DNA of 32,000 nt from the NCBI RefSeq assembly GCF_037902255.1, contig NZ_CP147990.1, forward strand, positions 1,530,001 to 1,562,000, in the 5' to 3' direction. A model generated the notes under the pieces. It did not search any database. It saw nothing but the letters and a program-made list of their open reading frames with translations, and had not been told where the DNA came from. Every line of letters begins with the position of its first letter. The first letter of the stretch is position 1. The stretch is from Candidatus Electrothrix sp. GW3-4. GTDB taxonomy: Bacteria; Desulfobacterota; Desulfobulbia; Desulfobulbales; Desulfobulbaceae. Shown here in pieces: positions 1,823 to 21,663 of the stretch. The translations under genes and the position numbers were made by a program.

Positions 1823-2038
1823 ATGCAAACAATAGCCATCCCTGATTCCGGCACCCTAACCCTTGCCACCATCGTCTGCGATTACAACGGTACCTTGGCA
1901 GTAGATGGCATTCTCTTACCTGGGGTGAAAGAGGCAATCAACAAGGTCACGGATATTGATATCCATGTCATCACTGCTGATACCTTTGGTATAGCCGAAG
2001 AGCAAATCAAAGCAAAAATGAGAAAGTTAGCCCCCTAA
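1823..2038 (+). pseudogene. truncated HAD-superfamily / soluble P-type-ATPase-like (COG4087-like) fragment
   Basis: The 71 aa (IVCDYNGTLAVDGILLPGVKEAINKV..IHVITADTFG) match the N-terminal half of family members that I recall as about 150 aa. The C-terminal half is absent and the frame stops 3 nt before the next ORF. Confidence 0.4.
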
Positions 2039-2041
2039 GAT

Positions 2042-2395
2042 ATGACCAGTATACCAGAACCCGAATGGCGTAAGATCCGAGAAATGAAGCCAGTAGTGCT
2101 GGATCGTGTATGCAAACGGATCCTCCGTGACTTAGCAGCTGCATCACAGACAACAGATGATGCTCAAAATCACCATGAGCAATACCTGCATGTATACAAG
2201 ATGCTGCAAGATAGAGATAATGACATTGCTCAGGGCTTCGATGACCTCAGACGGAGCAATGCATACGTCTTACTGGCCAACTGGGTTGGCAACCAATGGC
2301 TCACCTTGCCAGAGTTTAATGAACTCAGCAGGGAGACACGAGCGAAAGCCCTCGTGATCTGTGGGCTCGACGAGTATACTCCACCAGAAGCCTGA
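2042..2395 (+). CDS. hypothetical protein
   Basis: 117-aa ORF with ordinary amino-acid composition and no recognisable motif. An overlapping same-strand 66-aa ORF (2157-2357) and an antisense ORF look like shadows. Confidence 0.45.
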   Translation: MTSIPEPEWRKIREMKPVVLDRVCKRILRDLAAASQTTDDAQNHHEQYLHVYKMLQDRDNDIAQGFDDLRRSNAYVLLANWVGNQWLTLPEFNELSRETRAKALVICGLDEYTPPEA

Positions 2396-2551
2396 CAAAT
2401 CGCTGGAGTTCTGCTGGGTGCGGTCACTCCACCTTTCCCCCTTGCATTTCCTTGAGTATTACATTATTGTTGTCTCAGTTTTTATCCATTACCCAACAAA
2501 GATATTCCATGTTCACAACCTATCACTCCACATGAAGTTGCCGTAACGGCA

Positions 2552-2668
2552 CCCGACCCGGTCTGGGTCGGCGAGTAAGCTCAGCGGCTTGCCTCCTCTC
2601 CTGATTTCTTTCGACCTTCCCGGTCGACGTATCCTTCTACGATAGATCAGACGGACAAGGGCCGTCTG
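2552..2668 (+). promoter_or_regulatory. leader/intergenic module copy A (two hairpins), upstream of hdrA
   Basis: CCGACCC-ggtct-GGGTCGG hairpin (2552-2570) ... TCCTGA ... GATAGatCAGACGGAcAAGGGCCGTCTGA (2630-2668; 8-bp stem TCAGACGG/CCGTCTGA). A similar string order and spacing recurs at 6136-6248 upstream of mvhD. Confidence 0.35.
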
Positions 2669-2775
2669 AACCATTGATTCATTTTTTCGGCAAACGGTAC
2701 CCCCATGCCTTACGTGTCTCCGTATACGTATGACCTGGGCATGCAGCCGTGCCGATACGTACGAAGGAGCTCTTC

Positions 2776-5700
2776 ATGACCGTAATTGCACAAACTGCCG
2801 CCAAGATCAGCGGAGCCGTCATGGTGATCGGCGGTGGCGTGGCTGGTGTCCAGACTGCCCTTGATCTCACTGAACTGGGCTATAAGGTCTATCTGGTGGA
2901 AAAGTCCGGGGCCATTGGCGGGGTCATGGCCCGCCTGGACAAGACCTTTCCCACTAACGACTGTTCTCTCTGCATCCTCGCGCCCAAGTTGGTTGAAGCG
3001 GGCCGCGATCCCAATATTGAAATCCTCACCCTGGCTGAGCTGGTTGACCTGCAAGGTGAACCGGGCAGATTCACGGCCACCATCAAAAAGCAGCCCCGCT
3101 ATATTGATGAAGAGGTCTGCACTGGTTGCGGTCAGTGTACCCTCTACTGCCTCAAGCAGATCGGTAACGATTTCAACGAAAACATGGAGGTCAACCATGC
3201 CGCCCATATTGATTATTCCCAGGCCGTGCCGACCTCCTATTATATTGATGCCAAGGCCTGTCTCAAGCTGAACTATGATTCCTGCGGCCTCTGCGCTGTG
3301 GCCTGTCAGGCTGGAGCGATCCGATTTGACGATACCGAGAAGACCTTGGAAATACCGGTCGGGGCCGTGATCCTGGCTCCGGGCTTTGGCCGGGTGAGTG
3401 ACGAGGTCATGGCCAAGTACGGTCTGGGCAAGTTCCAGGACGTGATCACCGCCTTTGAGCATGAGCGACTGATGTGCGCCTCCGGCCCCACCGGCGGTGA
3501 GATCCTGCGCATTTCCGACCGCAAGCATCCCAAGAAGATAGCCTTTTTGCAATGTATCGGCTCCCGTGACGAGACTTGTGGCAATAATTACTGTTCTTCG
3601 GTCTGCTGCATGTACGCCATTAAGCAGGCCACCCTGGCCCGCGAGCATGACCCGAACTGCGAGATCACCCTCTTTTATATGGATGTACGCACCCACGGCA
3701 AGGGTTTTGACGCGGCCCGCAAACGGGCGGTTGAGGAAGGCGATTTTCGGGTGATCTATGCCCGTCCGCCTCGGGTGGAGGATGTCTTTGGCGGCGGGCT
3801 GCTGCTGACCTGGGCCACAGAGGACGGCAAACATCATTATGAGAAATTCGATATGGTCGTGCTTTCCCAGGGACTTGAGGCTCCCGAGGAGGCTGATAAA
3901 TTAGCCGAGGCTGCGGGCATCGACCTGAACGAGTACCTTTTTGCTGAGACTGATACCTACACCCCGCTGGCAACCAGCAGGCCAGGCGTCTATGTGATCG
4001 GGGCCTTCCAGGGACCGAAAGATATTCCTGATTCCGTTACGCAAGGCGGCGGGGCTGCGGCCCTTTGCGCCGGTCAGCTTGCCCCGGCCCGAAGCAGCGA
4101 AACAGTGAAAGCGGTTTTCCCCGAGGAGCGCGACATCAGTCAGGAAGAACCGCGGATCGGCGTCTTTGTCTGCCATTGCGGTATTAATATCGGCGGCGTG
4201 GTCAATGTGCCCTCTGTGGCTGAGTATGCCAAGACCCTGCCCAATGTGGCCTATGCCTCGGCCAATCTCTATTCCTGCTCCCAGGATGCGCAGCGGGTGC
4301 TGACCGAGACCATTCAGGAGCATCGGCTCAATCGGCTGGTGGTGGCTGCCTGCACTCCGCGTACCCATGAGCCGCTCTTCCAGGCCACCCTACGCGAGGC
4401 CGGACTGAACCGCTCCCTCTTTGAAATGGCTAATATCCGCGACCAATGCTCCTGGGTGCATATACATGAGCCGGAGCGGGCCACGGAAAAAGCCAAGGAT
4501 GCGGTGCGGATGGCGGTTGCCAAGGCCTGCCATCTGACTGCATTGGAGGAGGTACAATTGCCGGTTACCCCGGCGGCCTTAGTGGTCGGTGGCGGTTTGG
4601 CAGGCATGACCGCAGCCCTGGCCATTGCCGACCAGGGCTTTGCTGTGGATCTGATTGAACGGACAGCGAATCTGGGCGGTAAGGCCCTGCTGCTCACGGC
4701 GGACCGGCATGGTAAGGATCCCCGGCAGGAGGTGCAGGCGGTAATCAAGCGGGTGAATGCTCATCCGCAGATTACGGTCCACAACGAGGCGGCGGTGACA
4801 GCGGTCTCCGGCTATGTGGGCAACTTCACCACCACGGTGGAGAGCAAAGGGGCCAGCGAGCTGATTCATCACGGCGTAACCGTGCTCGCCACCGGCGGTC
4901 ATCCCTATCAACCAACTCAGTACTGTTATGGGAAGTCAGCGAAGATTGTTACTCAACTGGAGCTGGAGCAGCGCTTGGTCGAGGATCAGAACGACCTGAG
5001 AGCGGCCCGGCAGGCAGTGATGATCCAATGCGTTGGCTCCCGCGACGAGGACCTGACCTATTGCAGCCGGGTCTGCTGCGGTCAGGCCCTGAAGAACGCC
5101 CTCCGTCTCAAGGCCCTGCAGCCGGAGCTCCAGATTATTGTCCTCTACCGCGACATGCGTTCTTACGGTTTCATGGAGGATGACTACCGCAAGGCCCGTC
5201 AGCTCGGCGTGATCTTTACTCGTTACAGCTTGGACCGTAACCCCGAGGTTGATGTGAATGACGAGTCCGTCACGGTGCGCTATTTTGATCCGCTGCTCGG
5301 TGAGGAACTGGAGATCGAGGCCGACTTGCTGGCTCTGTCCACCGGTATTGTCCCGGAAGACCCGACCGCGCTGGCCAAGATGCTCAAGGTGCCGGTCACG
5401 GCCGAGAAGTTCTTCTTAGAGGCCCATGTCAAGCTCCAGCCGGTGGACCTGCCGGTGGATGGTACCTATGTCTGCGGTCTGGCTCATTCACCGCGCTCTA
5501 CGGATGAGACCGTGGCTCAGGCCCAGGCAGCGGCAGGACGGGCCTGTCAGCCTCTGGCAAAAGGTTCGGTGACCCCGGCACCCATTGTCTCGCAGATCAA
5601 TGCGGAACTCTGCATCGGCTGCGGGGCCTGCGAGTCCTTCTGTCCCTACAAGGCCATTAACATCTACAAGGATGATAACGGTAAACGCAAGGCCCGCACC

Positions 5701-6935: not shown

Positions 6936-9900
6936 GTATGACCGTATCCCTGACCATCAACGGCCAGCCGTTCCGTCTGGCTGCTGACCAGATCATCCTG
7001 GCTGCGGCCAAAGAGGCGGGGATTGAAATTCCCCATCTCTGCCACCTGCCAGGAAAGAGCGATGCCGACCCACCCTGTCTGCTCTGCCTGGTGGAGGTGA
7101 ACGGAAAACGAGCACGGGCCTGCGTAACCCGGATTGCCGAGGGTATGGTGATAGAGACCGAGACGCCAGCATTGGTCGAGCACCGCAAGGAACGGTTGGG
7201 CCAGCTGGCCGCTTGCCATTACGGCGACTGTAAGGCCCCATGCAGCCTGGCCTGCCCAGGCTCGATCAACGTCCAGGGCTATATCAGTCTGATCGGCCAG
7301 CAACAGTTCAGCGCCGCCCTCCAGTTGATCCGGGAGAAGAATCCCCTGCCCGGCATTGTCTGCCGGGTCTGTCCGACCTTTTGCGAGCATACCTGCCGTC
7401 GTGCCCTGCTGGATGAGGCCATTGCCATCAACAACCTGAAACGCTTTGCCTTTGATGCTGCATTTCAGCATCCCCTGCCAGCGGAGAAGGTAGCCCCGGC
7501 CACGGCTCATAAGGCAGCGATCATCGGTGGCGGTCCTACCGGTCTGAGTGCGGCCTGGTTCCTGCGCAAGCAGGGCCACAGCGTCACCATTTTCGAGGCT
7601 GGTCCGGCCCTGGGTGGGGCAGCCCGCACCGCCATTCCTGCCTTTAAGCTGCCCAAGGAAAATCTGGCCCGGGAGATTGAAACTGTCCTTTCCCTGGGAG
7701 TTGAGGTCAGGACCCGCACTGCCTGGGGCCGGGATTTTTCCCTGACCGATCTCCAGCAGCAGGGCTTTGGGGCGATCTTCATTGCCACGGGTCTTGCTGG
7801 GCATAAAAAATTAAGCGTACCAGGCAACGAGCTGGTCCAGGACGGCCTGGCATTCCTTGCCCAGGTCAATCAGGGCAGCCTGACCTCCCTGGCTGGCAAG
7901 GTCTTGGTGGTCGGGGGCAGCAAGGTCGCCATTGAGGCGGCCCGCACGGCCCTGCGCCTGGGCGCAGATGAGGTTCTGCTGATCCATGATCGGCCTGCGG
8001 TGCGCATGACGGCTTATGAGAAAGATATTCGGGCGGCGCAGGGAGAACAGGTCCAGCTGCAGATGCTGACCGCCCTGCTGGCGGTCCGGCAGGAAGATGA
8101 GACTACACTGAGCGCCGAGCTGACCCGAACAGAGCTTGTGGATGATGATGTGCGGAGCATGCCGGTGGCGAGAGAGGGTTCCTCGCTGCGCTGGCAGGGC
8201 GGCCTCATCCTCAACTGCCGGGGGCGGCAGGCGGATGAGGTCTTGCTCTCTTTTGGCGAGCTGGAGAGTAGGCTGGAGCTCACCCCGAAAAAGACCCTCA
8301 AGGTCAGGGTGGCCACCATGGAGACCAATCTGCCCGGCGTCTATGCGGGTGGCGAGGTGGCCAGCGGGCCGCGCTCGGTGATTCAGGCGATCAATGCGGG
8401 CCGTAAGGCCGCTGAGGCCATCCATCGTCAGTTTGGCGGGGCAGAGCTGGGGGTGGCAGACGGCCGCTTCAACTTCAGCAAGGGCCGCAGCTTGGATGCC
8501 GTGGACATGGGGAATTATAGGGGCAGGGCGATCCAGGCACGAACCGTGCTGCCGGAGCGGGCAGGAAAAGAACGTTGCCGCGATTTCAGTCAGACCGAGC
8601 TGGGCTATACGGAAGAAATGGCACTGCGTGAGGCCCGGCGTTGCCTGGAATGCGGCTGCACCGGTCTGAGTAAGTGCGAGCTGCGACCTCTCTGCCGGGA
8701 TCATAAGGTCTCGGCAAGATCGGCTCCCAGCCGACAACGGGGTGAGGTGGACCATTCCCATCCCTTTATCCGTCTTGATGCGGATCGCTGTATCGGCTGC
8801 CAACGCTGCCAGCGCTCCTGCGAGTTTGATGCCTTTGTTTTCAAACAGGGCGACCCGGTGCCCTTGCTGACCATCAAGGGTAACTGTGTCTCCTGCGGGG
8901 CCTGCGTCGATGCCTGCCCTACCGGTGCCCTGACCAAGAAGCAGCTGACCTTGCCCCTGTTGCCCGCTGAGGCCGAACAGGTGCGTAGCGTTTGTACCTA
9001 CTGCGGCACGGGCTGCTCTGTGGATATTGCCGTGAAAAACAGTACCATCATCGAGATCAAGGCCTTGGTCGACGCCCCACCCAATAACGGCGATCTCTGC
9101 GTCAAGGGCCGCTTTGGCTTTGACTTCTATCGTCATCCTGAGCGCCTGACCAGGCCCCTGATCCGGGAACGGCTGGACCAGCCCTTTCGCCAGGCAAGCT
9201 GGCAAGAGGCCCTGGCCTTTGCTGCGGCAGGCTTCAGGCGTATCCAGGAAGAGCAGGGGCCGGAGGCCCTCGGGATCCTCTCCTCGTCCCGTTGCGAGAA
9301 CGAGGTTAACTACCTGGCCCAAAAGTTCTGTCGGACCGTGTTCCGCAGTAACTCGGTGGATAACTGTGCCCGGGTCTGCCATGCCCCGTCGGTGAGCGGC
9401 CTGCGCATTGCTCTGGGCAGTGGGGCCGCCACCAACGCCCTGGCAGACATCGAAGGTGCTGAGGTGCTGCTGATCAGCGGCTCCAATCTGGCTGAGGCCC
9501 ATCCGGTAGTGGGGATGAAGGTGCGTCGTGCCCTGCACAAGGGGGCCCGGCTGATCGTCATTGACCCGCGTCAAACCGAGATGGCCCGGCTGGCCGACAT
9601 CCACCTCCAGCTTATTCCCGGCACCAACGTCCCCCTGCTCAACTCCCTGCTCCACGCCATTCTGGATGAGGGCCTGGAGGACAAGGGCTTCGTTGCTGCC
9701 CGGACCGAGAACCTGGACCGAGTACGCGAGCATGTGGCTGCCTATGCGCCAGAGGCCATGGCCGAGCAGACCGGAGTTGCTGCGGAGCTGGTCCGCCAGG
9801 CGGCCCGGCTCTATTGTGCGACCACCAAGGGCATGATCCTCTACGGGCTGGGCATGACCGAGCACCGTAACGGTACCCAGGGGGTGATGGGTCTGGCCAA

Positions 9901-11062
9901 TATCGCCCTGGCCTCCGGCAATGTGGGACGACGCAACGCAGGCATCTGCCCCCTGCGGGGGCAGAATAACGTCCAGGGCTCCTGCGATATGGGGGCCCTG
10001 CCCTATGTCTATTCCGGGTATCAGGATGTGGGGGATGAGGCCGCCTGGAAACGGATGAGCAGGAACTGGGGCATGGAGCTCCCTGAAACCGCAGGCCTGA
10101 CCGAGCCGGAAATGTACGAGGCTGCCCGCAAGGGCAGGTTCAAGGGGCTGTACTGCATCGGCTATGACCCGCTCCATACTCAGGCCGACGTCCATAATAT
10201 TCGTGCTGCCTTTGCCCAGCTGGACATGGTGGTGGTCCAGGATATCTTCCGGACCAAGACCTGTGAGATGGCCCATGTGGTCCTGCCTGCAGCTTGCTTT
10301 TACGAGAAGGACGGTACCTTTACCAATGCCGAGCGGCGGATTCGGCGTATCCGTAAGGCCGTAGACCCGCCCGGTGAGGCCCGGCCTGACTGGCAGATCG
10401 TCTGTGATCTGGCCCAGGTAATGGGTCAGACTATGGCACAGACTATGGGGCAGGATACAGGGCAGGCTATGACCTATCCTGATGCGGCCGCAGTGATGGA
10501 TGAGATCGCGGCCTGTTCTCCCTTCATAGCTGGCGTCAGCTATGCCCGTCTGGAAGGGGAGGGGCTGGTCTGGCCCTGCCCGAGCAGCGAGCATCCCGGT
10601 ACCCCGATCCTCCATCAAGAGGATTTCACCCGGGGCAAGGGCTGGTTCTCGGTCCTGGCCAATGTCGAGACCCTGGAACGGCCTGATGCAGACTACCCCC
10701 TCATCCTGGTCACAGGGCGGCGACGGGAGCATTACAACAACGGCTCCATGACCCGCCGTTGCGCCGGTTTGATCAAGCTGCTGCCAGAGGAACAACTGGA
10801 TATTCATCCAGCGGATGCTGCCCGGCTCGGTATCAGCGACGGCCAGCAGGTATGGGTGCGCTCCCGGCGGGCCGAGCTGGAGATCACAGCCTGCGTGACC
10901 GAGCGCTGTCGGCCCGGTTCGGTATTCATGGCCTTTCACCATGAGGAGCCGTTGACCAACCTGCTTACCAGTCCGGGCCTGGATGAAATCGCCCTGACCC
11001 CGGAGTACAAGGCCTGTGCGGTCAGTATTAGCCCCGTAACTCCTCCGGGTGACGGGGCATAA
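6932..11062 (+). CDS. fdhA: fusion protein: 2Fe-2S ferredoxin-like + GltD-like NAD(P)H/FAD module + 4Fe-4S + molybdopterin formate-dehydrogenase alpha-like (Cys type)
   Basis: 1376 aa. N-terminal Cys cluster CHLPG..CLLCLVEV..AC. GltD-like Rossmann motifs AAIIGGGPTGLSAAW and VLVVGGSKVAIEAA. Ferredoxin motifs CIGCQRCQRSC and CVSCGACVDACP. MopB 4Fe-4S motif CTYCGTGCSV. Active-site string NCARVCHAPSV, with TGC (9377-9379) where Sec/Cys sits, followed by His. C-terminal molybdopterin-binding barrel region. Confidence 0.85.
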   Translation: MSMTVSLTINGQPFRLAADQIILAAAKEAGIEIPHLCHLPGKSDADPPCLLCLVEVNGKRARACVTRIAEGMVIETETPALVEHRKERLGQLAACHYGDCKAPCSLACPGSINVQGYISLIGQQQFSAALQLIREKNPLPGIVCRVCPTFCEHTCRRALLDEAIAINNLKRFAFDAAFQHPLPAEKVAPATAHKAAIIGGGPTGLSAAWFLRKQGHSVTIFEAGPALGGAARTAIPAFKLPKENLAREIETVLSLGVEVRTRTAWGRDFSLTDLQQQGFGAIFIATGLAGHKKLSVPGNELVQDGLAFLAQVNQGSLTSLAGKVLVVGGSKVAIEAARTALRLGADEVLLIHDRPAVRMTAYEKDIRAAQGEQVQLQMLTALLAVRQEDETTLSAELTRTELVDDDVRSMPVAREGSSLRWQGGLILNCRGRQADEVLLSFGELESRLELTPKKTLKVRVATMETNLPGVYAGGEVASGPRSVIQAINAGRKAAEAIHRQFGGAELGVADGRFNFSKGRSLDAVDMGNYRGRAIQARTVLPERAGKERCRDFSQTELGYTEEMALREARRCLECGCTGLSKCELRPLCRDHKVSARSAPSRQRGEVDHSHPFIRLDADRCIGCQRCQRSCEFDAFVFKQGDPVPLLTIKGNCVSCGACVDACPTGALTKKQLTLPLLPAEAEQVRSVCTYCGTGCSVDIAVKNSTIIEIKALVDAPPNNGDLCVKGRFGFDFYRHPERLTRPLIRERLDQPFRQASWQEALAFAAAGFRRIQEEQGPEALGILSSSRCENEVNYLAQKFCRTVFRSNSVDNCARVCHAPSVSGLRIALGSGAATNALADIEGAEVLLISGSNLAEAHPVVGMKVRRALHKGARLIVIDPRQTEMARLADIHLQLIPGTNVPLLNSLLHAILDEGLEDKGFVAARTENLDRVREHVAAYAPEAMAEQTGVAAELVRQAARLYCATTKGMILYGLGMTEHRNGTQGVMGLANIALASGNVGRRNAGICPLRGQNNVQGSCDMGALPYVYSGYQDVGDEAAWKRMSRNWGMELPETAGLTEPEMYEAARKGRFKGLYCIGYDPLHTQADVHNIRAAFAQLDMVVVQDIFRTKTCEMAHVVLPAACFYEKDGTFTNAERRIRRIRKAVDPPGEARPDWQIVCDLAQVMGQTMAQTMGQDTGQAMTYPDAAAVMDEIAACSPFIAGVSYARLEGEGLVWPCPSSEHPGTPILHQEDFTRGKGWFSVLANVETLERPDADYPLILVTGRRREHYNNGSMTRRCAGLIKLLPEEQLDIHPADAARLGISDGQQVWVRSRRAELEITACVTERCRPGSVFMAFHHEEPLTNLLTSPGLDEIALTPEYKACAVSISPVTPPGDGA
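10421..10468 (+). repeat. in-frame degenerate 12-nt tandem repeat x4 inside the fdhA-like gene
   Basis: ATGGGTCAGACT ATGGCACAGACT ATGGGGCAGGAT ACAGGGCAGGCT, encoding MGQT MAQT MGQD TGQA. Confidence 0.8.
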
Positions 11063-13561: not shown

Positions 13562-13588
13562 GGGTGCGATTAAAAGTGCGGTTTTATC
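13562..13588. repeat. IS left inverted repeat (IRL)
   Basis: 27/27 match to the reverse complement of 15026-15052. Confidence 0.9.
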
Positions 13589-13701: not shown

Positions 13702-15026
13702 ATGCTGCCACTGTCACAGGAAGATCAGGAATTGCTGAGCAGGTTGAATAGTAGGCCCGACCTGAAAAATCGTGTAAAATCAGTTTTATCTATAGCATGT
13801 GATGACGGAGATGGAATTGTAAGGGCAGATGAAGCGGAAAGTCGGATTATCGAGGAAATTCGACGCATGGGCAACGATGTGCTTACAGAATGGGCGGAGA
13901 GCCGAGTTGAAAAATCCGGGACGGATTTTCCGACGGACGGTGATATTACTCGCAGCGGTCAAAAAAAATCCATTGGCACAGCACATTCGGAAAGATAAGC
14001 GTCTTCGAGCAGATATATAAACAACAGGGAAAGCGACACCGACCGTTCAGTCGGAGTGCCGGAATAACCTGCCGGTGCTGTTCCCTGCCTCTGCAGCGAG
14101 CTGTGACCGATTTCGGTGCGGATCACTCTTTCGGTCGTGTTTCGGACAAACTGCTGGAACATTACGGGATAACTTTACCGACGAGCACTGTCCGCAACAT
14201 CACGGAAATTCACGCTCAACAAATATATGAAAGACGCCGTCGAGAAAGGATAGAAGAATATCCGGCTGTAACAGGACGAGATTGTGTAATCGCAGAGACG
14301 GACGGCAGCATGGTCCCCATTGTCGTGACGGATAGCAATGCCGAAGACCGGCGCAAAGGCAAAGAGTATGTTTGGAAAGAAGCACGCCTGAGTATTGCGC
14401 ATGTTCCCGGCGATACGACGCTCAAGTTCGGAGTGGAATTCCGGGAAGGAGTGGACGAGGCGGGAAAGGAGTTTTTCGACAGCGCGTGCCGGGCTGGATT
14501 TGGTTGGGGAACGTATCTGCATGCCGTAGGCGACGGTGCCTCGTGGATTGTCGGACAGGTGAAAAAACGATTCGGTCAGCAGGGAAATTATCTTGTCGAT
14601 TTCTATCATCTTTGCGAATACCTGGAAGGTACTGCACCGGCATTTCTCGGGAAAAGTGAAAAAGTTTCATGGGTCGCTCGGCAGAAAGAATTCCTGAAAT
14701 CGGGGCATACGGAAAAAGTGACCGAAGCATTGCGACCGCATCTTGAGCCGGACACGACGGAGGATCGGAATGCGCCTGTCCGCCGTTGCCTGCGTTATTT
14801 GCTTAACCGTCCGGGACAGTTCGATTATCCGGGCGCTCAGGCACGCGGTCTGCCTGTCGGTTCAGGTGAAATAGAGAGTGCGCACCGATATATTATTCAG
14901 GAACGTCTGAAAATCGCCGGTGCATGGTGGACGACGGAAAACGCCCGGTTTATGCTTGCTCTGAGGGTTGATCGTGCCGATGGATACTGGAACAGGTATT
15001 GGGAAGGAGTAAGCCGGGCGGCATAG
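13702..15026 (+). pseudogene. IS transposase split into two frames at an A8 run (a -1 shift restores a ~441-aa protein)
   Basis: The upstream frame (13702...) reads ..TRSGQKK and stops at 13996-13998. The -1 frame is open from 13944 and reads KKIHWHSTFGKISVFEQ...LQRAVTDFGADHSF through to TAG 15024-15026. The two frames overlap across the run AAAAAAAA at 13961-13968. This is either a 1-nt indel or programmed/transcriptional slippage. Confidence 0.65.
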
Positions 15027-15052
15027 ATAAAACCGCACTTTTAATCGCACCC
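15026..15052. repeat. IS right inverted repeat (IRR)
   Basis: GATAAAACCGCACTTTTAATCGCACCC. The last nucleotide of the transposase stop codon (G, 15026) is the first nucleotide of IRR. Confidence 0.9.
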
Positions 15053-15061
15053 AATCTCGGG
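15053..15061. repeat. right copy of the 9-bp target-site duplication
   Basis: AATCTCGGG. Its last three G are part of the GGGAGG Shine-Dalgarno (15059-15064) of the gene starting at 15069. Confidence 0.85.
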
Positions 15062-15068
15062 AGGTTCT

Positions 15069-15740
15069 ATGTCCAGTTCAACTGAGTTCCTGCTCTATGT
15101 CACGGTGTACCGCTTAAGCGTGCTGGCTATCGGTGCGCTTTCCATTTATCTGGGGTTCCGTCTCTTTAATCGTCCTGCCGAGCTTGCTCGCTCCGGGTTG
15201 GGGACGGCTTCGGCAGAGGTTGAGTCAAAGCTGTTTACCTTACGCGTGACTGATTTTTGGCCCGGAGCCTACTTCGCTTTGTTCGGCACAGTTCTCATTG
15301 GAATTATGCTGTGGCAGGGGCCGCCGGAGATGAAGACAGAGTCTGTTCATGAAAAAACTGCTGCGGGTGAAAAAACGATTGATACTGACTTGATAAGAGC
15401 TGCTCCAGGAATTAATCTTGAGGGTGTATCGGCTCCTGCTGGTTCACAGTCTCAACGATCTGATGTTAAGCAGGAGTTGGGCAAACTAGGTCAGGCAGGT
15501 ATGATTTCTGTTGAAGCGGCTGAGTCCTTTGCGAATATTGCCAGGATGTGGCAGAAAGAAGGACGTATCGGCGAGGCTCTGGCAATGGCGCGCTTGGCTT
15601 ATTTGTACGGGCCGGAGATCGACAAGGCTGCCCATCTTTCTCTGCTTGCGGAGTTGCTGGAGGCGAACGGAAGAACTCAGGATGCAGCCGATGCCCGTGC
15701 TGCGTTGGAAGAAATGCGGCAAAAGGGCGAAGGGGAGTAA
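15069..15740 (+). CDS. membrane protein with two N-terminal TM helices and a TPR-like helical C-terminus (first gene of the DGR target operon)
   Basis: 223 aa. TM helices LYVTVYRLSVLAIGALSIYLGF and AYFALFGTVLIGIMLW. The C-terminal region (ARMWQKEGRIGEALAMARLAYLYGP..AAHLSLLAELLEANGRTQDAADARAALEEM) looks TPR-like. The stop is 2 nt before the next ATG. Confidence 0.6.
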   Translation: MSSSTEFLLYVTVYRLSVLAIGALSIYLGFRLFNRPAELARSGLGTASAEVESKLFTLRVTDFWPGAYFALFGTVLIGIMLWQGPPEMKTESVHEKTAAGEKTIDTDLIRAAPGINLEGVSAPAGSQSQRSDVKQELGKLGQAGMISVEAAESFANIARMWQKEGRIGEALAMARLAYLYGPEIDKAAHLSLLAELLEANGRTQDAADARAALEEMRQKGEGE

Positions 15741-15742
15741 TC

Positions 15743-17416
15743 ATGCTGGTAAGGTTTCTGTATATTCTGCTCGTTCTGTCAATTGCGCTTCCGGTGCAGG
15801 CCGCTTCTCCCTATGGTCGTTTTCACGCCTTGGTGATTGGTAATGAAAACTACAGACATCTCAAGACGCTGAATACTCCTATAGAGGATGCCGAGGCGGT
15901 GGCCGAGCTGTTACAAGATCAGTACGGATTTGACGTTGAGTTATTGCCGGATGCTACGTGGAAGCAGACTATGAGAGCGATCTCCGGGTTGCGGGTAACA
16001 GCAAATCAAGAGTCGGATAATCTGCTGATTTACTATGCCGGTCATGGGTATCTCAACAAAAAGACAGGGGTTGAATATTGGCAGCCAGTCGATGCTGAGA
16101 GAGATAATGATATCTACTGGATTCCGACATCAAGAATTACCAGTATGCTGAAAGAGATTCGGGCTAAACATGTGTTGGTGGTGGCTGATTCCTGCTATTC
16201 CGGCAGCCTGCTGACACGGGATTCCGGGGCGAAACTGCCGGACGGGTCAGGACTGGATGAACTGCTCCGGCGGATGCAGGAGAGACGTTCCCGCACCGCC
16301 CTGACCTCGGGCGGTGAAGAGCCGGTGTGGGATGCTGGCGGAGGAAATCATTCGGTGTTTGCCAAGGCGTTTCTTGATGCTTTGCGGGAGAATCGAAAAA
16401 TTCTGGACGGATATACCATCTTTGATCGGATCAGACGACCGGTCGCTTTGAATGCTCCGCAGACACCTCAGTACGGGGATATTCGGATGACAGGCCATGA
16501 GTGGGGTGATTTTTTGTTGGTGCCCAAGGAGTTGCAGAATATAGAGATTCCTGATTTTGTCGCGTCGCTTGCTGGTTTTGCCACCAGAGATAATTCTCGG
16601 CAGAACAAAGAACCTCAACAGGGCGATCCTTTCATCGACCCAACCACCGGCATGGAGTTGGTATATATCCCCAAGGGATGTTTTCAGATGGGGCAGACAG
16701 TTGAGGGAAAACAACAAATTATTGCCGAGGCTGGACAGGAGACTTACGACTCATACTATGAGGACGAACTTCCCCGGCATAAGGTGTGCGTGGATGGCTT
16801 CTGGATGGGAAAGTACGAAATGACCCAGGGGCAATGGAAGCAGATTATGGGCAAAAATCCGGCCAAATTTAAAAAGGGTGACAAGTATCCGGTGGAGCAG
16901 GTATCTTGGGAGGATGTGCAGAAGTTCATTGGTGAGCTAAATAAGAGAGCTGGTAAGAAATACCGTTTGCCCACTGAGGCGGAATGGGAGTATGCGGCTA
17001 GGGCCGGGACAACGACGGTACGGCATTGGGGGAATGATATTTCCTGTGATAAGGCGATGTATGACAACTATTCAGAAACGGATAACTGTGCCGAGTATGT
17101 CAGAAAACGAGGATTTCAGAATGGTTCCACCGCGCCAGTAGGAAAATATCCCGAGAATGATTTTCACCTGCATGATATGTTGGGGAATGTCTGGGAATGG
17201 TGTGCGGACTGGTATGACGAGAAATATTATGCTGAATGTAAGAAGCACGGTGTTACGAATAATCCGGTGGGCCCTTCGTCAGGCTCCGACCGCGTGATTC
17301 GCGGCGGCAGCTGGAGCAATGACCCGAGGCTCGTGCGTTCGGCGAATCGCCTCAGGAACACGCCTGGCTATCGCTACTTCAGCTTGGGCTTTCGGCTTGC
17401 TCTCCCAGATCAGTAA
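15743..17416 (+). CDS. secreted caspase-like (peptidase C14) + FGE-sulfatase/C-type-lectin-fold protein; DGR variable (target) protein
   Basis: Start at ATG 15743 (GGGGAG RBS). The 15548 start in the ORF track overlaps the preceding gene. Signal peptide MLVRFLYILLVLSIALPVQA/AS. Caspase dyad motifs LLIYYAGHG and VLVVADSCYSG. FGE-sulfatase domain GMELVYIPKGCFQMG...WEYAARAG...GNVWEWCADWY...RVIRGGSWSNDPRLVRSANR....LGFRLA, with the VR at its end. Confidence 0.85.
   Translation: MLVRFLYILLVLSIALPVQAASPYGRFHALVIGNENYRHLKTLNTPIEDAEAVAELLQDQYGFDVELLPDATWKQTMRAISGLRVTANQESDNLLIYYAGHGYLNKKTGVEYWQPVDAERDNDIYWIPTSRITSMLKEIRAKHVLVVADSCYSGSLLTRDSGAKLPDGSGLDELLRRMQERRSRTALTSGGEEPVWDAGGGNHSVFAKAFLDALRENRKILDGYTIFDRIRRPVALNAPQTPQYGDIRMTGHEWGDFLLVPKELQNIEIPDFVASLAGFATRDNSRQNKEPQQGDPFIDPTTGMELVYIPKGCFQMGQTVEGKQQIIAEAGQETYDSYYEDELPRHKVCVDGFWMGKYEMTQGQWKQIMGKNPAKFKKGDKYPVEQVSWEDVQKFIGELNKRAGKKYRLPTEAEWEYAARAGTTTVRHWGNDISCDKAMYDNYSETDNCAEYVRKRGFQNGSTAPVGKYPENDFHLHDMLGNVWEWCADWYDEKYYAECKKHGVTNNPVGPSSGSDRVIRGGSWSNDPRLVRSANRLRNTPGYRYFSLGFRLALPDQ
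17281..17412 (+). repeat. DGR variable repeat (VR), last 132 nt of the target gene
   Basis: Aligns to the TR at 18986-19093. The 70-nt left flank and 25-nt right flank are identical except for 5 positions, all at TR adenines. The central segment is 33 nt in the VR versus 9 nt (AACAACAAC) in the TR. Confidence 0.85.
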
Positions 17417-17427
17417 CGCAGGGGTTT

Positions 17428-17440
17428 GGGGCGAAGCCCC
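17428..17440 (+). other. GC-rich hairpin 16 nt downstream of the VR (candidate DGR target-recognition hairpin and/or terminator)
   Basis: GGGGC-gaa-GCCCC, followed 6 nt later by TTTTTT (17447-17452). Confidence 0.4.
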
Positions 17441-17516
17441 GGCGAATTTTTTATGAGGTATTACAGAAATGTATTGTTTTTTTTAAACGAATTTCACGTT
17501 TATAACGTCGCCAATT

Positions 17517-18020
17517 ATGTCTCTTCAATACAAAGTATTCACAGTGCGTCCCGTGTTTTCCTCAGAAGACGAGGAGGCGTTGAACCTGTTCCTTCGCTCT
17601 CATAAAGTTCTGACCGTCCATCAAGAGTTTGTCGCCGACGGCATCAATTCGGCTTGGCATTTTGCCGTCGAATTTCTCGTAGGCCAAGCCAATGAAAAGA
17701 GTGGTTCCGGCGACGGGCGCAAAAGAATTGACTATCGGGAATCCCTTGATCCAGAATCCTTCTCCCTATATGCCCGTCTGCGAGACTGGCGTAAGCAGGT
17801 TGCTGAACAGGAGGCCGTGCCCTTGTACACCATCTTCACTAACAAACAGCTGGCATGCATAGCCGAGGAGCGTATACAGAGTAAGGAAGGCTTGCGGAAG
17901 ATTGAAGGTGTCGGCGCGGCCAGAATAGATAAATATGGGGCGGCTCTCATTGAACTTGTTGTAACAGCTCACGAAAAAAACGATGAAGCGCCTGAACAAC
18001 CTCTATCCACAGATCACTGA
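17517..18020 (+). CDS. HRDC-domain DGR accessory protein
   Basis: 167 aa. The C-terminal ~70 aa (LYARLRDWRKQVAEQEAVPLYTIFTNKQLACIAEERIQSKEGLRKIEGVGAARIDKYGAALIELV) match the HRDC (RecQ/RNase D C-terminal) pattern. The gene overlaps the RT start by 38 nt. Confidence 0.75.
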   Translation: MSLQYKVFTVRPVFSSEDEEALNLFLRSHKVLTVHQEFVADGINSAWHFAVEFLVGQANEKSGSGDGRKRIDYRESLDPESFSLYARLRDWRKQVAEQEAVPLYTIFTNKQLACIAEERIQSKEGLRKIEGVGAARIDKYGAALIELVVTAHEKNDEAPEQPLSTDH

Positions 18021-19002
18021 TCCAGATAATCTCCGTCTGGCCTTTTGTAAGGCTGCACGAGGTAAACAGGACAGAGCCGAGGCTGTCAGATTTCGTGCGG
18101 ATTTTGAACGGAATATTCAAAAATTGCACAGACAGCTCCTGCTTGAGGAACCGGATATCGGCCATTATCGTTTTTTCACCGTTTGTGATCCTAAACCACG
18201 CCGTATCTGTGCGGCTTCGTTCCCGGAGCGGGTGCTGCATCATGCGATTATGAACGTCTGCGAACCGGCCCTGAACGCCTATCACATTTATGATACTTAT
18301 GCCTGCCTGCCCGGTAGAGGCCAGTATAAGGCCCTGGATCGTGCGGTTAAATTTTCAGGTTCATCGTCCTGGTATTTACAACTTGATATCAGACACTATT
18401 TTGATTCCATTGATCATCGCATCATGCTTGATCTGCTGAAGAGAAGATTCAAGGACAAGCAGCTGCTCAACCTTTTTGCCCAACTGCTGGACAGCTTTCA
18501 CAGTCGGCCCGGCAAAGGTCTGCCCATTGGCAACCTGATTTCCCAGCATCTTGCCAATTACTACCTCGGTATATTTGACCATTGGATTAAGGAGGAGCGG
18601 CGTTATAAAAAATATTTGCGTTACATGGACGATTTCGTTCTGTTTGGTCAAAGTAAGGAAAAATTACGTCAGGAGCTTTGCCGGATTGAAGAATATCTTG
18701 AGAGAACCCTGCAATTACAGTTGCGGCAACCGATAAAGCTTAATCGTTGCCGCCTTGGAGTGACCTTTCTCGGTTATCGCGTTTTTCCAAGCGGGCTACG
18801 CCTGTCGGCCCAGAGTAAAAAACGCTTCATACGTAAACTGAAACAGTATGAGGAAATGTATCAGCTCGGTATATGGGGTGAAGATACTCTAAGCAGACAT
18901 GTTGAACCGCTGATAGAATTTACCAGACACGCCAAGGCAGATGGTTTTCGCCGAACTGTGCTGGAACGATACGGGGGCTGTCCTGAGGCTCCAACCGCGT
19001 GA
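17983..19002 (+). CDS. DGR-type reverse transcriptase
   Basis: 339 aa with RT motifs PKPRRICAASFPERVLHHAIMNV, YLQLDIRHYFDSIDH, LPIGNLISQHLANYYL (DGR hallmark [ILV]GxxxSQ), YLRYMDDFVLF (YMDD) and VTFLGYRV. The stop codon TGA 19000-19002 lies inside the TR. Confidence 0.9.
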   Translation: MKRLNNLYPQITDPDNLRLAFCKAARGKQDRAEAVRFRADFERNIQKLHRQLLLEEPDIGHYRFFTVCDPKPRRICAASFPERVLHHAIMNVCEPALNAYHIYDTYACLPGRGQYKALDRAVKFSGSSSWYLQLDIRHYFDSIDHRIMLDLLKRRFKDKQLLNLFAQLLDSFHSRPGKGLPIGNLISQHLANYYLGIFDHWIKEERRYKKYLRYMDDFVLFGQSKEKLRQELCRIEEYLERTLQLQLRQPIKLNRCRLGVTFLGYRVFPSGLRLSAQSKKRFIRKLKQYEEMYQLGIWGEDTLSRHVEPLIEFTRHAKADGFRRTVLERYGGCPEAPTA

Positions 19003-19093
19003 TTCGCGGCGGCAGCTGGAACAATAACCCGAGGAACGTGCGTTCGGCGAATCGCAACAACAACTTGGGCTTTCGGCTTGCTCTCCCAGCTCA
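18986..19093 (+). repeat. DGR template repeat (TR), 108 nt
   Basis: Invariant, adenine-rich copy of the VR. In the VR frame it encodes NRVIRGGSWNNNPRNVRSANRNNNLGFRLA with 7 AAC and 1 AAT Asn codons. It starts 17 nt before the RT stop. Confidence 0.85.
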
Positions 19094-19334
19094 CCAATGG
19101 TGTGGTGTATCCGTTGCTGAACAGGACAGAATCCGGTCCTCCGTTAAGAGCGGAGGCAAACATGAAGGAGGACTTATCGGGGTTGGTAGTGCCAGCTGGA
19201 TGGCGGCGCGAAAGCCCCGGTTTGTTTTATTGTATCAATACTTCAAAGGAATTAATGATGTTATCATTCATCGGAATGATAACATAAATCGTGCCGCCTG
19301 ACTTACGCCCCCATCAGGTCCAAGGAACCAACCA

Positions 19335-19616
19335 ATGAAAGTCGCAAATCCCCTCTACGATGTCGTGTTCAAATACCTGATGCAGGATATGCGGGTTGCC
19401 AAGCTGGTCATATCCAACATCATTGAACAGGAGATGGAAGATGAAATTCTGGAGCAATTAGCAACTCAGGAGCGGGTAATAGCTTACGAAAGGGCGGAAA
19501 AAGAGAAAGCGGAAGTTGAAAAAAGGAAAGCGGAAGCGGAGAAAGAAAAAGCGGAAGCGGAAGCGGAAAAAGACAGGCTTGAAAAATTATTGAAGCAAGC
19601 AGGTATTGAGTTTTAA
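19335..19616 (+). CDS. internally deleted paralog of the downstream PD-(D/E)XK (Rpn/YhgA-like) gene
   Basis: 93 aa. The first ~30 aa (MKVANPLYDVVFKYLMQDMRVAKLVISNII) parallel the N-terminus of the 19684 gene, then the sequence jumps straight to a K/E/A coiled-coil tail. The nuclease core is missing. Confidence 0.45.
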   Translation: MKVANPLYDVVFKYLMQDMRVAKLVISNIIEQEMEDEILEQLATQERVIAYERAEKEKAEVEKRKAEAEKEKAEAEAEKDRLEKLLKQAGIEF

Positions 19617-19683
19617 GGAAAATAGAAAAGGGATGCGCGGGTCGCTACCCTACCTGGCCTTCACATAAAACAGGATAGAAACA

Positions 19684-20565
19684 GTGCAGATAGCGAATCC
19701 GGTGTATGATGTCGTCTTCAAATATCTGATGGCCGACAACAGCATAGCGAAAAAGATCATCTCGCTCATTATCGGCGAGGAAATAGAAAACCTTGATTTT
19801 CAGCCCACGGAATACAGCGATGATGTGGACAAGGGCAACAGGTCGCTCACCGTCTACCGGCTTGACTTCGCGGCGACCGTGCGCCTGCCCGACGGGAGCC
19901 GCAAGCGAATCATCATCGAGATCCAGAAAGCCAAATTCGCCACCGACATCATGCGGTTCCGTAACTATCTCGGTAAACAGTACTCGAACAAAAACAACGT
20001 GTATGAAGAGGGGAACAGATCGAAAGCCTGTCCGATCCTGAGTATTTATTTTCTGGGCCATCGGCTGGACAATGTCCATGTTCCGGTCACTAGGGTGGAG
20101 CGGAAGTATTATGACAACGCCACAGGCGAGGAACTTCCTGTCCGGGAGGAATTTATTGAAAGCCTGACGCATGACAGCTTTGTTATTCAGATTTCCGAAC
20201 TCAGACGGAAGCGGAGAAACCTGTTGGAAAAAGTGCTGGCGGTGTTCGAGCAGCCCGCTTCGGTGAAGACTCCCCATTTTCTTGATATTTCCGAGTCCGA
20301 GTATCCAGCGGAGTACAGGGAGGTGATCCGAAGGCTGATACAAGCCGCTGCTGAACCCCAGGTCAGGCAGACTATGGATGTGGAGGATGAAATCATAGAG
20401 GAACTCGGCAGTCTTGAACGCATTATAGCGGTTCGTGATAAAACGATTGATGATCAGAAAAGGGAACTTGATGACAAGGACAGGGAGCTTAGTGATAAAA
20501 ACAAGGCTCTTGATGATCAAAAAAAGCTCATTGAGGAATTAAAGAGACAGCTTGGTGAAAAATAA
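19684..20565 (+). CDS. PD-(D/E)XK nuclease family protein (Rpn/YhgA-like putative recombination-promoting nuclease/transposase)
   Basis: 293 aa with a GTG start. N-terminus MQIANPVYDVVFKYLM. Core RLDFAATV....RIIIEIQKAKF (D...ExQ motif). C-terminal coiled coil with D/K/E repeats. Confidence 0.6.
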   Translation: MQIANPVYDVVFKYLMADNSIAKKIISLIIGEEIENLDFQPTEYSDDVDKGNRSLTVYRLDFAATVRLPDGSRKRIIIEIQKAKFATDIMRFRNYLGKQYSNKNNVYEEGNRSKACPILSIYFLGHRLDNVHVPVTRVERKYYDNATGEELPVREEFIESLTHDSFVIQISELRRKRRNLLEKVLAVFEQPASVKTPHFLDISESEYPAEYREVIRRLIQAAAEPQVRQTMDVEDEIIEELGSLERIIAVRDKTIDDQKRELDDKDRELSDKNKALDDQKKLIEELKRQLGEK

Positions 20566-20576
20566 CACCAGGACAT

Positions 20577-20664: not shown

Positions 20665-21663
20665 TTACTGCTCAAACAAGGTGGAGATATTCCCCAACAC
20701 AGAGCCTTCACCTACCCCCTTTCCTCCAGCCTGAGGCGCCGCCGCCCAGATCTTCCCGGCCAGGCGGGAAAAGGGGAGGGACTGCAACCAGACATGGCCG
20801 GGCCCGCGCAGGGAGGCAAAGAAGAACCCCTCGCCGCCAAACACCGCTGATTTCACATTGCCCACATACTCAATATCATAATCCACGCTCTGGGTCAGGG
20901 CCACCAGACAGCCGGTATCCACCCGCAGGGTCTCTCCGGCCTGGAGCTGCCGCTCAACAATGGTGCCGCCAGCATGGACAAAGCAGAGACCATCACCGTC
21001 CAGCTGCTGCATGATGAACCCTTCACCACCAAACAGGGCCGTGCCGATCCGCTTCTGAAAAGCGATCCCTATGGCCACCCCCTTGGCAGCACAGAGAAAG
21101 GCGTCCTTCTGGCAGATAATTCGGTTGCCGTATTGACTGAGATCCAGGGGAATAATCTTGCCCGGATAGGGGGAGGCAAAGGCGACCTTACCCTTGCCCT
21201 GGCCCTGAAAGGTGAACATGGTGATGAACAGCCCCTCACCGGTGATCAGGCGTTTACCTGCTCCGAGCATCTTGTCAAAGAAACCTCCCTGCTGAGACGA
21301 GGCAGAGCCGTCACCAAAGACGGTGTCCATTTTAATAAAATCGCTCATGTACATCATGCTGCCTGCCTCGGCCACCACGCTCTCCTGGGGGTCAAGCTCG
21401 ATCTCGACAAACTGCATCTCGTGGCCAAAGATCTCATAGTCGATCTCGTGGGCCTGCCTCCCGGACATGGGAGGAGGCGTGCTGGCTGCCGCATTAGGAT
21501 TGGTCAATTCCCTGACCTGCTCCACTGGCAACCAATCACTCAAACCTTCCCGCCAGACCATGGTGGCCTGATTGTATTGGCCGGATCTGAGCCCGGCGAT
21601 CATCTGTTCATGGGAAAAAGGACCGACCGTCTGGCCGTTGACCGCAACATACCAGGTATACAT
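20665..21663 (-). CDS. GYF_2 (DUF4339) domain + TIGR00266/AIM24 (DUF124) family protein
   Basis: 332 aa. N-terminal [47 protein letters not shown] (GYF-like). The remainder ([33 protein letters not shown]...[10 protein letters not shown]...[14 protein letters not shown]) matches the TIGR00266 pattern. Confidence 0.7.

Follow-up and report, generated by a model that had tools for sequence, protein, structure and literature searches.

A cable-bacterial diversity-generating retroelement with an apparently recent template deletion, and a candidate RNA family for HRDC-type elements

The diversity-generating retroelement (DGR) of Bordetella phage BPP-1 consists of Mtd, Avd and the reverse transcriptase (RT) bRT, together with a DGR RNA that contains a spacer (Sp) and is primed in cis at Sp A56; the survey of DGR RNA elements in the paper on that phage ribonucleoprotein covered Avd-containing DGRs only (bioRxiv 10.1101/2023.10.23.563531). 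HRDC accessories are known from 'Architecture C', found in 14 of 372 DGRs (Wu et al. 2018, PMC5758913). DGR-diversified peptidase and sensor proteins have further been described in multicellular bacteria including cyanobacteria and Thiohalocapsa (Vallota-Eastman 2020; Kaur et al. 2020; Dore et al. 2024; PMC7517822, PMC7159879, PMC10907252), and a link between DGRs and multicellular immunity has been proposed (PMC10907252), to which cable bacteria, being centimetre-long multicellular filaments, are relevant. Here we analysed a stretch of 32,000 nt (the window; contig NZ_CP147990.1, 1,530,001 to 1,562,000) from the cable bacterium Candidatus Electrothrix sp. GW3-4, described as Ca. Electrothrix antwerpensis GW3-4, for which a closed genome was obtained from a clonal enrichment begun from a single filament (PMC11247825). 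A full-text literature search returned no paper treating DGRs together with cable bacteria or Electrothrix. Taken as a whole, the locus is best explained, with good confidence, as a chromosomal HRDC-type DGR, an element of known kind, in this strain. As candidate novelties, it offers a cable-bacterial DGR seen just after a deletion in its template repeat (TR) and a new RNA family for HRDC-type DGRs. The parts of the locus are as follows:

15069–15740, + strand: gene for a transmembrane (TM)/tetratricopeptide repeat (TPR)-like protein; 223 aa, with a pair of predicted TM helices and, C-terminally, a helical TPR-like part
15743–17416, + strand: DGR target gene; 557 aa, signal peptide, caspase and FGE-sulfatase/C-type-lectin domain
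17281–17408, + strand: variable repeat (VR); 128 nt, coding for about 42 last residues of the lectin domain
17351–17374, + strand: VR-only segment; 24 nt, CTC AGG AAC ACG CCT GGC TAT CGC
17517–18020, + strand: accessory gene; 167 aa, N-terminal beta-alpha-beta-beta domain, linker and HRDC domain
17983–19002, + strand: DGR reverse transcriptase; 339 aa, intact, RVT_1 match at 9e-16, motifs LPIGNLISQ and RYMDDFV
18986–19089, + strand: TR; 104 nt, apparently with an in-frame loss of 24 nt compared with its own VR and with the TRs of sister species
19090–19235, + strand: conserved structured RNA; about 145 nt directly 3′ of the TR, ending in a T-run

With the HRDC-type DGRs, whose prototype is Treponema denticola TvpA, the GW3-4 locus shares an HRDC accessory and the lack of Avd, and with the TvpA DGR itself it shares an FGE-type C-type-lectin VR matching structure 2y3c. 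Unlike Architecture C, in which 11 arrangements were seen in 14 examples (PMC5758913), the order target, accessory, RT, TR and RNA is fixed across hundreds of loci of the GW3-4 type; the accessory protein has an extra conserved N-terminal beta-alpha-beta-beta domain, and the host is a cable bacterium. The RT is homologous to that of BPP-1 over about 290 residues, including IGxxxSQ and YMDD, and mutagenesis of TR adenines is common to both systems, whereas GW3-4 lacks Avd, carries the TR downstream rather than upstream of the RT, and has an RNA without an Rfam match. The diversified protein also differs, being an apparently exported cellular caspase-lectin instead of a phage tail fibre, and the priming site is an inferred one. 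A caspase placed N-terminal to a diversified FGE/C-type-lectin domain in a multicellular filamentous host recalls the DGR-diversified peptidase and sensor proteins, from which the GW3-4 target departs by its signal peptide and its membrane/TPR partner. Since the locus has no STAND NTPase, EAD adaptor or conserved MoxR-vWA genes, it falls outside the described ternary/NACHT conflict systems.

A repeat search of the window yielded two collinear blocks, one at an offset of 1705 (17269–17359/18974–19064) and the other at 1681 (17370–17425/19051–19106). Base-by-base comparison of TR 18986–19089 with VR 17281–17408 indicated that the two are the same apart from nine substitutions at TR adenines and the 24-nt VR-only segment. 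Thus, 9 of 23 adenines were changed and 0 of 81 other bases (Fisher one-sided p = 3e-7), so that the formal alignment proposed as a possible refutation by an earlier, sequence-only reading of this DNA returned no non-adenine difference. That reading had listed five substitutions, all in the first register (18993 A>G, 19021 A>G, 19026 A>G, 19035 A>C and 19036 A>T), and had counted 5 of 17 A and 0 of 78 non-A changed over 95 nt, and both the list and the count were reproduced base by base. Its statement that these were the only differences holds for the 95 nt, but not for the AAC AAC AAC block that it had set aside as ambiguous; this block is unambiguous in the second register and adds four changes, again at TR adenines (19056, 19059 and 19060 A>T; 19063 A>G). 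The changed codons are all AAC, becoming D, S, D, L, Y, F and S, so that what had been noted for the first five changes extends to all nine; A-to-N changes in GW3-4 are confined to AAC/AAT codons.

The TR/VR homology stops right after CTCTCCCAG (TR 19089/VR 17408). The repeats had earlier been drawn as 18986–19093 and 17281–17412, which is right up to 19089 and 17408; the last 4 nt have to be given up, the C/A mismatch there lying outside the transferred tract. In 13 aligned relatives the base after the repeat is an invariant C in the TR and mostly G, A or T in the VR, and the boundary after CCCAG is sharp, with (A/G/T)TCAG flanking the VR and an invariant CTCA flanking the TR. The VR ends 8 nt short of the stop codon of the target gene. 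No further TR-like copy and no second VR or target was found in the 32-kb window when TR adenines were masked to N and up to 3 mismatches were allowed. An inverted repeat follows the VR:

17426–17452, + strand: GC-rich hairpin and T-run; TTGGGGC GAA GCCCCGG at 17426–17442, beginning 18 nt past the VR end

This terminator-like site is kept in Ca. Electrothrix sp. EH2, and more distant relatives have other GC-rich inverted repeats 40–60 nt past the VR, as judged by eye; it is a candidate for a DGR target-recognition hairpin, a target-gene terminator or both. The open reading frame (ORF) 18999–19301 (100 aa, MIRGGSWNNNPRN...), called as a gene in the Logan assembly, is simply an in-frame reading of the TR.

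The most informative feature of the locus is the 24-nt difference in length between TR and VR. The difference had been recorded before, as 108 versus 132 nt, and is real; we now read it as a deletion in the TR. The former description of the DGR as 'complete' was therefore too strong, as the TR lacks 24 nt held by the VR and by sister TRs. The placement of the VR-only segment at 17351–17374 is ambiguous by a few nt owing to flanking ATCGC repeats. Full-length TRs holding the 24 nt were found in Ca. Electrothrix sp. EH2 (locus L083 of our set) and in E. marina (L001), the two closest relatives; the E. marina RT is 87% identical, and that of EH2 falls in the same 90% cluster as GW3-4. In the EH2 TR the segment reads AAC AGG AAC ACG CCT GAC AAT CGC, and the GW3-4 VR differs from it at four sites, all of them adenines in the EH2 TR, while EH2's own TR/VR pair is ungapped, with 14 of 32 A and 0 of 96 non-A changed. 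Supportively, the eight codons are kept in every VR examined at three further related loci (L169, L170 and L172). Among 126 TR/VR pairs in related loci, 110 were ungapped, 16 had gaps of 1–6 nt and one was split by 29 nt, and the median TR/VR match length in relatives was 134 nt, against 104 nt in GW3-4.

From the sister species, the ancestral GW3-4 TR can be reconstructed as …GCG AAT CGC AAC AGG AAC ACG CCT GAC AAT CGC AAC AAC AAC TTG…, in which the 10-nt direct repeat AATCGCAACA would occur twice, exactly 24 nt apart; removing one unit gives the present TR, with the deletion junction within AATCGC|AACA at about 19050–19059. The GW3-4 TR thus appears to have lost 24 nt (eight codons, roughly N-R-N-T-P-D-N-R) between copies of this repeat, later than the most recent full-length homing. 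Loss from the TR, not gain in the VR, is indicated because the 24 nt are present in sister TRs and all differences of the VR segment from the EH2 TR fall at adenines; and since the non-A positions are identical at 81 of 81 sites, both the deletion and the last homing event would be recent. A single genome would here show the order of events, full-length homing and then template damage, which makes a rare natural time-stamp.

The earlier reading had ended the cassette at the TR. The roughly 145 nt that come next, however, are conserved among three Electrothrix loci and carry a conserved structured RNA with these elements:

19091–19098/19113–19120: P1
19124–19126/19132–19134: P2
19139–19143/19151–19155: P3, followed by AAACA
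19172–19183/19214–19225: P4, with a conserved GUA (19186–19188)/GAA (19210–19212) internal loop and an inner hairpin at 19189–19197/19202–19209

RNAalifold analysis of 13 loci down to 55% RT identity indicated compensatory changes in 20 of 31 pairs. A covariance model built from this 13-locus alignment matched 71 times at E ≤ 0.01, and in 67 cases the match directly follows a TR on the RT strand. In the alignment fitted by the model, 89.6% of cells were paired, against 40–51% with slid partners, double changes occurred in 28 of 31 pairs, and the covariation score was 0.557 versus at most 0.135. The GW3-4 window keeps 30 of the 31 consensus pairs. Just 3′ of the TR, U19091 C A forms a duplex with U G A19120, in which U19091 and A19120 are about 99% conserved, and a stem-loop followed by A-rich sequence is conserved at 19139–19163. 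Folding of 19084–19240 as a single sequence (z = -1.39) agreed with the consensus at P4 only, so the 5′ helices rest on covariation and not on thermodynamics. No Rfam family matched the RNA in a scan of 15000–19700 at E ≤ 1, and the same scan returned zero matches overall, those to group II intron and retron non-coding RNAs included. By analogy, the element is presumed to play the part that the 'spacer' RNA has in the Bordetella phage DGR, and A19120 is a candidate cis-priming nucleotide. The RNA is common to most of the related HRDC-type loci fetched, and it may help explain priming that is independent of Avd. An exact 14-nt repeat, GTTGCTGAACAGGA, shared by the HRDC gene (17799–17812) and P1 (19113–19126), was considered as a long-range RNA element and rejected as chance; the copy in the HRDC gene is absent in EH2, and a search of other related loci gave no such copy. 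At one related locus (L002) the RNA occurs once more at 4284–4408 (model positions 20–152, 92 bits), about 1.5 kb downstream from the main copy, and no TR in front of this extra copy was recognised by the scan.

The proposal that the locus is a DGR was upheld by the adenine-only differences of the TR/VR pair, by the RT motif and match, by the position of the VR at the 3′ end of a gene with a C-type-lectin scaffold, and by the adjacent accessory gene. The feature that is missing is collinearity of TR and VR at equal length (104 versus 128 nt), and this mismatch bears on the intactness of the element, not on its membership of the DGRs. The two motifs named by the sequence-only reading, LPIGNLISQ and YMDD, are present in the RT ORF, which shares 38 nt with the accessory gene and 17 nt with the TR. 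The best sequence match of the RT among solved structures is 8ub7, a 328-aa 'Reverse transcriptase' in the PDB (E 1.4e-36, 130 bits, residues 2–289), and the alignment pairs IG(N/S)L(I/T)SQ and YMDD. The next-best PDB matches are group II RTs at 58–59 bits (best 58.7; 6e-15), some 70 bits lower. From its length and sequence, we take 8ub7, an accession absent from the phage ribonucleoprotein paper, to be the Bordetella phage bRT.

The accessory protein had been called HRDC-type rather than Avd, and this was confirmed by a PF00570 match at 2.2e-19 over residues 73–156. Its AlphaFold2 model (pLDDT 83) found the HRDC domain of E. coli RecQ (1wud) as the best Foldseek match, with a TM-score of 0.87 on superposition, while a search with the model gave no significant structural match for the N-terminal domain (residues 2–58). 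In 80 of 80 related genome loci, an accessory homolog separates target and RT, and the N-terminal 70 residues alone match 70 loci. The NCBI start of the HRDC gene lies 21 codons late (146 aa; window 17517–17579), cutting the N-terminal domain that is conserved in these 70 loci.

After the paradigm of the Bordetella phage system, a transcript of RT, TR and downstream structured RNA would be bound by the RT and the HRDC protein. cDNA synthesis would be primed in cis beside the 3′ end of the TR, where P1 puts the near-invariant A19120 next to the TR end, and the RT would misincorporate opposite template adenines. Replacement of the VR by this cDNA would then recode AAC/AAT codons at the 3′ end of the target gene, which correspond to the ligand-binding face of the C-type-lectin (FGE-type) domain. 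The present VR would have been written from a full-length TR, which would then have lost its 24 nt. Because the TR lacks these 24 nt, full-length homing could no longer regenerate a VR of the present length; a homing tract that now crosses the deletion would make the lectin tip eight residues shorter, and no VR shorter by 24 nt is fixed in the sequenced clone. Variable 5′ crossover is known in the Bordetella phage system, and on this basis only short 3′ tracts, covering the last three AAC codons, could diversify the VR without a change of length. With the RT, the accessory gene and the RNA element all intact, the machinery is probably still competent.

The strongest rival explanation is that the element is already a fossil, the DGR having stopped, whether following the loss from the TR or independently, and the VR being a frozen coding sequence on its way to a state like that of E. 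aestuarii, where the syntenic site is occupied as follows:

E. aestuarii locus (L164, CP159373.1), 7001–10380: TM/TPR and caspase-FGE gene pair; no HRDC-RT-TR

On either side this locus keeps synteny with the window at 78–93% nt identity, a UPF0175/DUF3368 gene pair occupies the position of HRDC-RT-TR, and the 'ex-VR' of the orthologous caspase-lectin gene has diverged at constant positions too (32% identity over the last 40 residues). Either the DGR was lost there or it was acquired in the lineage of GW3-4, EH2 and E. marina. A fossil in GW3-4 would agree with a VR still at its pre-deletion length and with the truncated RT of L170 (6001–6660), a related cassette of trypsin-FGE target and HRDC with internal deletions and an RT ORF shortened to 62 aa, showing that cassettes of this clade do decay; RT orthologs above 63% identity are also limited, among those listed, to the GW3-4/EH2 cluster and one 87%-identical cluster, an identity equal to that of the E. 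marina L001 RT. The intact 339-aa RT and 167-aa accessory gene, the 30 of 31 RNA pairs kept and the identity of TR and VR at all 81 non-A positions, which would place both deletion and last homing close to the present, argue the other way, and we regard cessation as possible though rather doubtful.

It is very unlikely that the DGR is intact and that the 24 nt were inserted in the VR during mutagenic homing by slippage of the RT on AAC repeats. Length differences between TR and VR were found in 7% of DGRs, 74% of the indels adjoin AAC, and they were ascribed to slippage (Wu et al. 2018, PMC5758913); the GW3-4 junction, too, abuts AAC AAC AAC. However, slippage does not fit a VR whose 'extra' 24 nt are orthologous to template sequence: far from being novel, they correspond to a segment of the EH2 and E. 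marina TRs, differ from that of EH2 at adenines only, and encode eight codons kept in every VR and TR examined in related loci. The GW3-4 TR is, moreover, shorter than every ungapped match listed for related loci in the first pass (at least 121 nt). Nor is the short TR at all likely to be an assembly or polishing artefact concealing a true TR of 128 nt. The genome was built from Nanopore reads by Flye assembly and polishing (PMC11247825) and the region holds a short tandem-like repeat, yet across the TR two run-level assemblies (SRR28154589 and SRR28154590) match the window at 100% identity, and a clean in-frame loss of 24 nt exactly between 10-nt direct repeats is atypical of homopolymer-type error.

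That the RT is of another class (group II intron, retron or Abi/DRT) and the repeat a chance duplication of a gene end has a negligible probability, for although the best partial NCBIfam match is the group II RT/maturase model and some RT homologs are annotated 'retron-type' or 'maturase family' by their sources, that match reaches only 101 bits against a cut-off of 300, those to Drt3a (64 versus 200), retron St85 (49 versus 235) and AbiA (23 versus 250) are likewise sub-threshold, a DGR RT structure leads the PDB matches, Rfam finds no intron or retron RNA, and the adenine-only pattern recurs in more than 100 related loci. By motifs, structure-database matches and family-model scores, the RT is thus predicted to belong with DGR RTs.

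Several points weigh against a DGR whose template was shortened after recent homing and whose RNA serves priming. The TR of E. marina shows one non-A difference from the VR-only segment (G>A), which we attribute to TR divergence between species, and the ancestral GW3-4 TR is a reconstruction from sister species and not an observed sequence. The three consensus assemblies are identical, and all come from one clonal culture begun from one filament; a metagenome scan with the RT for strain-level VR variants reached a best relative of 61–64% RT identity. The hairpin that follows the VR is short, and folding of the wider region gave a z-score of -0.43, which does not set it apart statistically. The covariation counts come from the model-fitted alignment, which favours the structure. 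Analogy is the basis for placing priming at A19120, for the proteins proposed to bind the RNA and for a periplasmic function of the target. An exact-cluster look-up of the target for VR variants found a cluster with one member.

The diversified protein itself agrees with what had been proposed for it. Its VR ends an FGE-sulfatase domain of C-type-lectin fold (PF03781, 3.2e-49, residues 306–554), and in the PDB this domain matches FGEs of human and bacterial origin as well as the DGR variable protein TvpA (2y3c, 3.4e-23); residues 29–245 match Peptidase_C14 (PF00656, 1.9e-24). Read from the sequence, the N-terminal signal peptide MLVRFLYILLVLSIALPVQA|AS (…LPVQA|AS) and the intact caspase His/Cys dyad motifs YYAGHGY and VVADSCYSG are conserved in orthologs. 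The ATG at 15743 is the start called by both Logan and NCBI. Apart from caspase and FGE domains, no STAND/NACHT NTPase, EAD adaptor or MoxR-vWA-VMAP component was met in the target or its neighbours. A role in envelope or periplasmic ligand recognition coupled to proteolysis is, by analogy, most likely.

The TM/TPR gene had been counted as part of the retroelement, a claim that does not hold: with homologs in 0 of 81 related DGR loci, the gene is not DGR machinery, and in E. aestuarii it is found with the target gene and without HRDC-RT-TR. The TM helices and TPR-like character of the protein were judged by eye from the sequence; Pfam and NCBIfam gave no matches, and one UniRef homolog is named 'Tetratricopeptide repeat protein'. 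Of its 53 homologs, those that carry a source name come from cable bacteria (Electrothrix spp., 'Desulfobulbus sp. US4/TB'), the sole exception being a caspase-annotated read-through ORF labelled Planctomycetes. In each context fetched (E. aestuarii, E. marina and MAN1_4) the gene lies 2 nt upstream of the signal-peptide caspase-lectin gene, and the two further contexts are these:

E. marina locus (L166/L167): contig ends inside the target gene; RT-TR open another contig, L001
MAN1_4 locus (L168, Ca. Electrothrix sp.), 1980–3398: ortholog of the target pair, with Lcl_C (PF07603) and not FGE-sulfatase

No RT was found on the 4.6-kb MAN1_4 contig. The break in E. marina (end of L166/start of L001, ERZ26778537) falls around the VR/accessory region, as expected from the TR/VR repeat or from VR heterogeneity. 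A MoxR/vWA conflict-system context was considered and rejected as a conserved association, as such an operon stands beside the E. marina ortholog only and not in GW3-4 or E. aestuarii. The TM/TPR gene thus appears to be a cable-bacteria-specific partner of the caspase-lectin gene, and the pair is a lineage-specific, putative envelope module that is under DGR control in some Electrothrix species only. These results extend DGRs to cable bacteria, with an apparently exported caspase-lectin, paired with a lineage-specific membrane protein, as the diversified protein. A wider reading, put forward tentatively as one joint proposal, would see in the RNA an undescribed family serving HRDC-type DGRs, with the U19091–A19120 pair as priming mark and the GUA/GAA loop as a loop-E-like docking site for the two-domain HRDC protein, acting on a cable-specific module with a just-damaged template; within it, the caspase-lectin and TM/TPR proteins may form a module for envelope surveillance or kin recognition, DGR-controlled in some Electrothrix.

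Relatives of the RT numbered 238 in a scan of one genome per species and more than 559 in a metagenome scan, and more than 3,391 RT homologs were found in the protein database at E ≤ 1e-60. The order target, accessory of about 165 aa, RT and TR recurs in the fetched loci. A simple TR/VR finder gave A-biased pairs in 59 of 83 sources in the first pass, and the 126 pairs came from 111 loci once metagenome loci were added. Collectively, the related loci form a large coherent group of HRDC-type DGRs. Related loci of cable-bacterium type, in two Electrothrix metagenome-assembled genomes and two contigs, diversify other caspase- or trypsin-lectin fusions. EH2 has a second, partial HRDC copy (L083, 2992–3602; 81% nt identity with the first copy) some 350 nt downstream of the TR/RNA element, possibly a tandem second cassette, and the contig ends there.

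The window is ordinary chromosome, with HdrA/MvhD/molybdopterin-type redox genes upstream and an AIM24-GYF gene, a FAD oxidase, a two-component system and minor pilins downstream; the neighbours of the DGR are redox enzymes, insertion sequence (IS) fragments and paralogous ORFs with sub-threshold Pfam matches only. NCBI names the four proteins of the region 'SUMF1/EgtB/PvdO family nonheme iron enzyme', 'HRDC domain-containing protein', 'RNA-directed DNA polymerase' and 'hypothetical protein'. A promoter scan was uninformative, with 8 sites against 5.1 expected. The GYF_2 and AIM24 domain protein (20665–21663, - strand) adjoins the locus in both GW3-4 and E. aestuarii, and no sign of a link between this protein and the DGR was found.

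Directly upstream of the TM/TPR-target gene pair, an ISKra4-family transposase is inserted (13702–15026), split into two ORFs of 98 and 307 aa compared with a model of 422 positions; its match to NF033572 (1e-49) is below the cut-off. The segment 13565–15052 is not present in the syntenic E. aestuarii locus, and Logan contig L081 has a break at 13564 as well, pointing to a repeated element. On the other side, 19283–20576 holds two paralogous ORFs for which no Pfam family exceeded the threshold (weak sub-threshold matches only):

19335–19616: paralogous ORF 1, shortened, starting MKVANPLYDVVFKYLM
19684–20565: paralogous ORF 2, starting MQIANPVYDVVFKYLM

Both Logan contigs end within this region (19352/19362). 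The two ORFs are 93% identical at the nt level to the E. aestuarii copies, against 78–85% for the flanking chromosome, and this suggests a repeated or mobile gene family.

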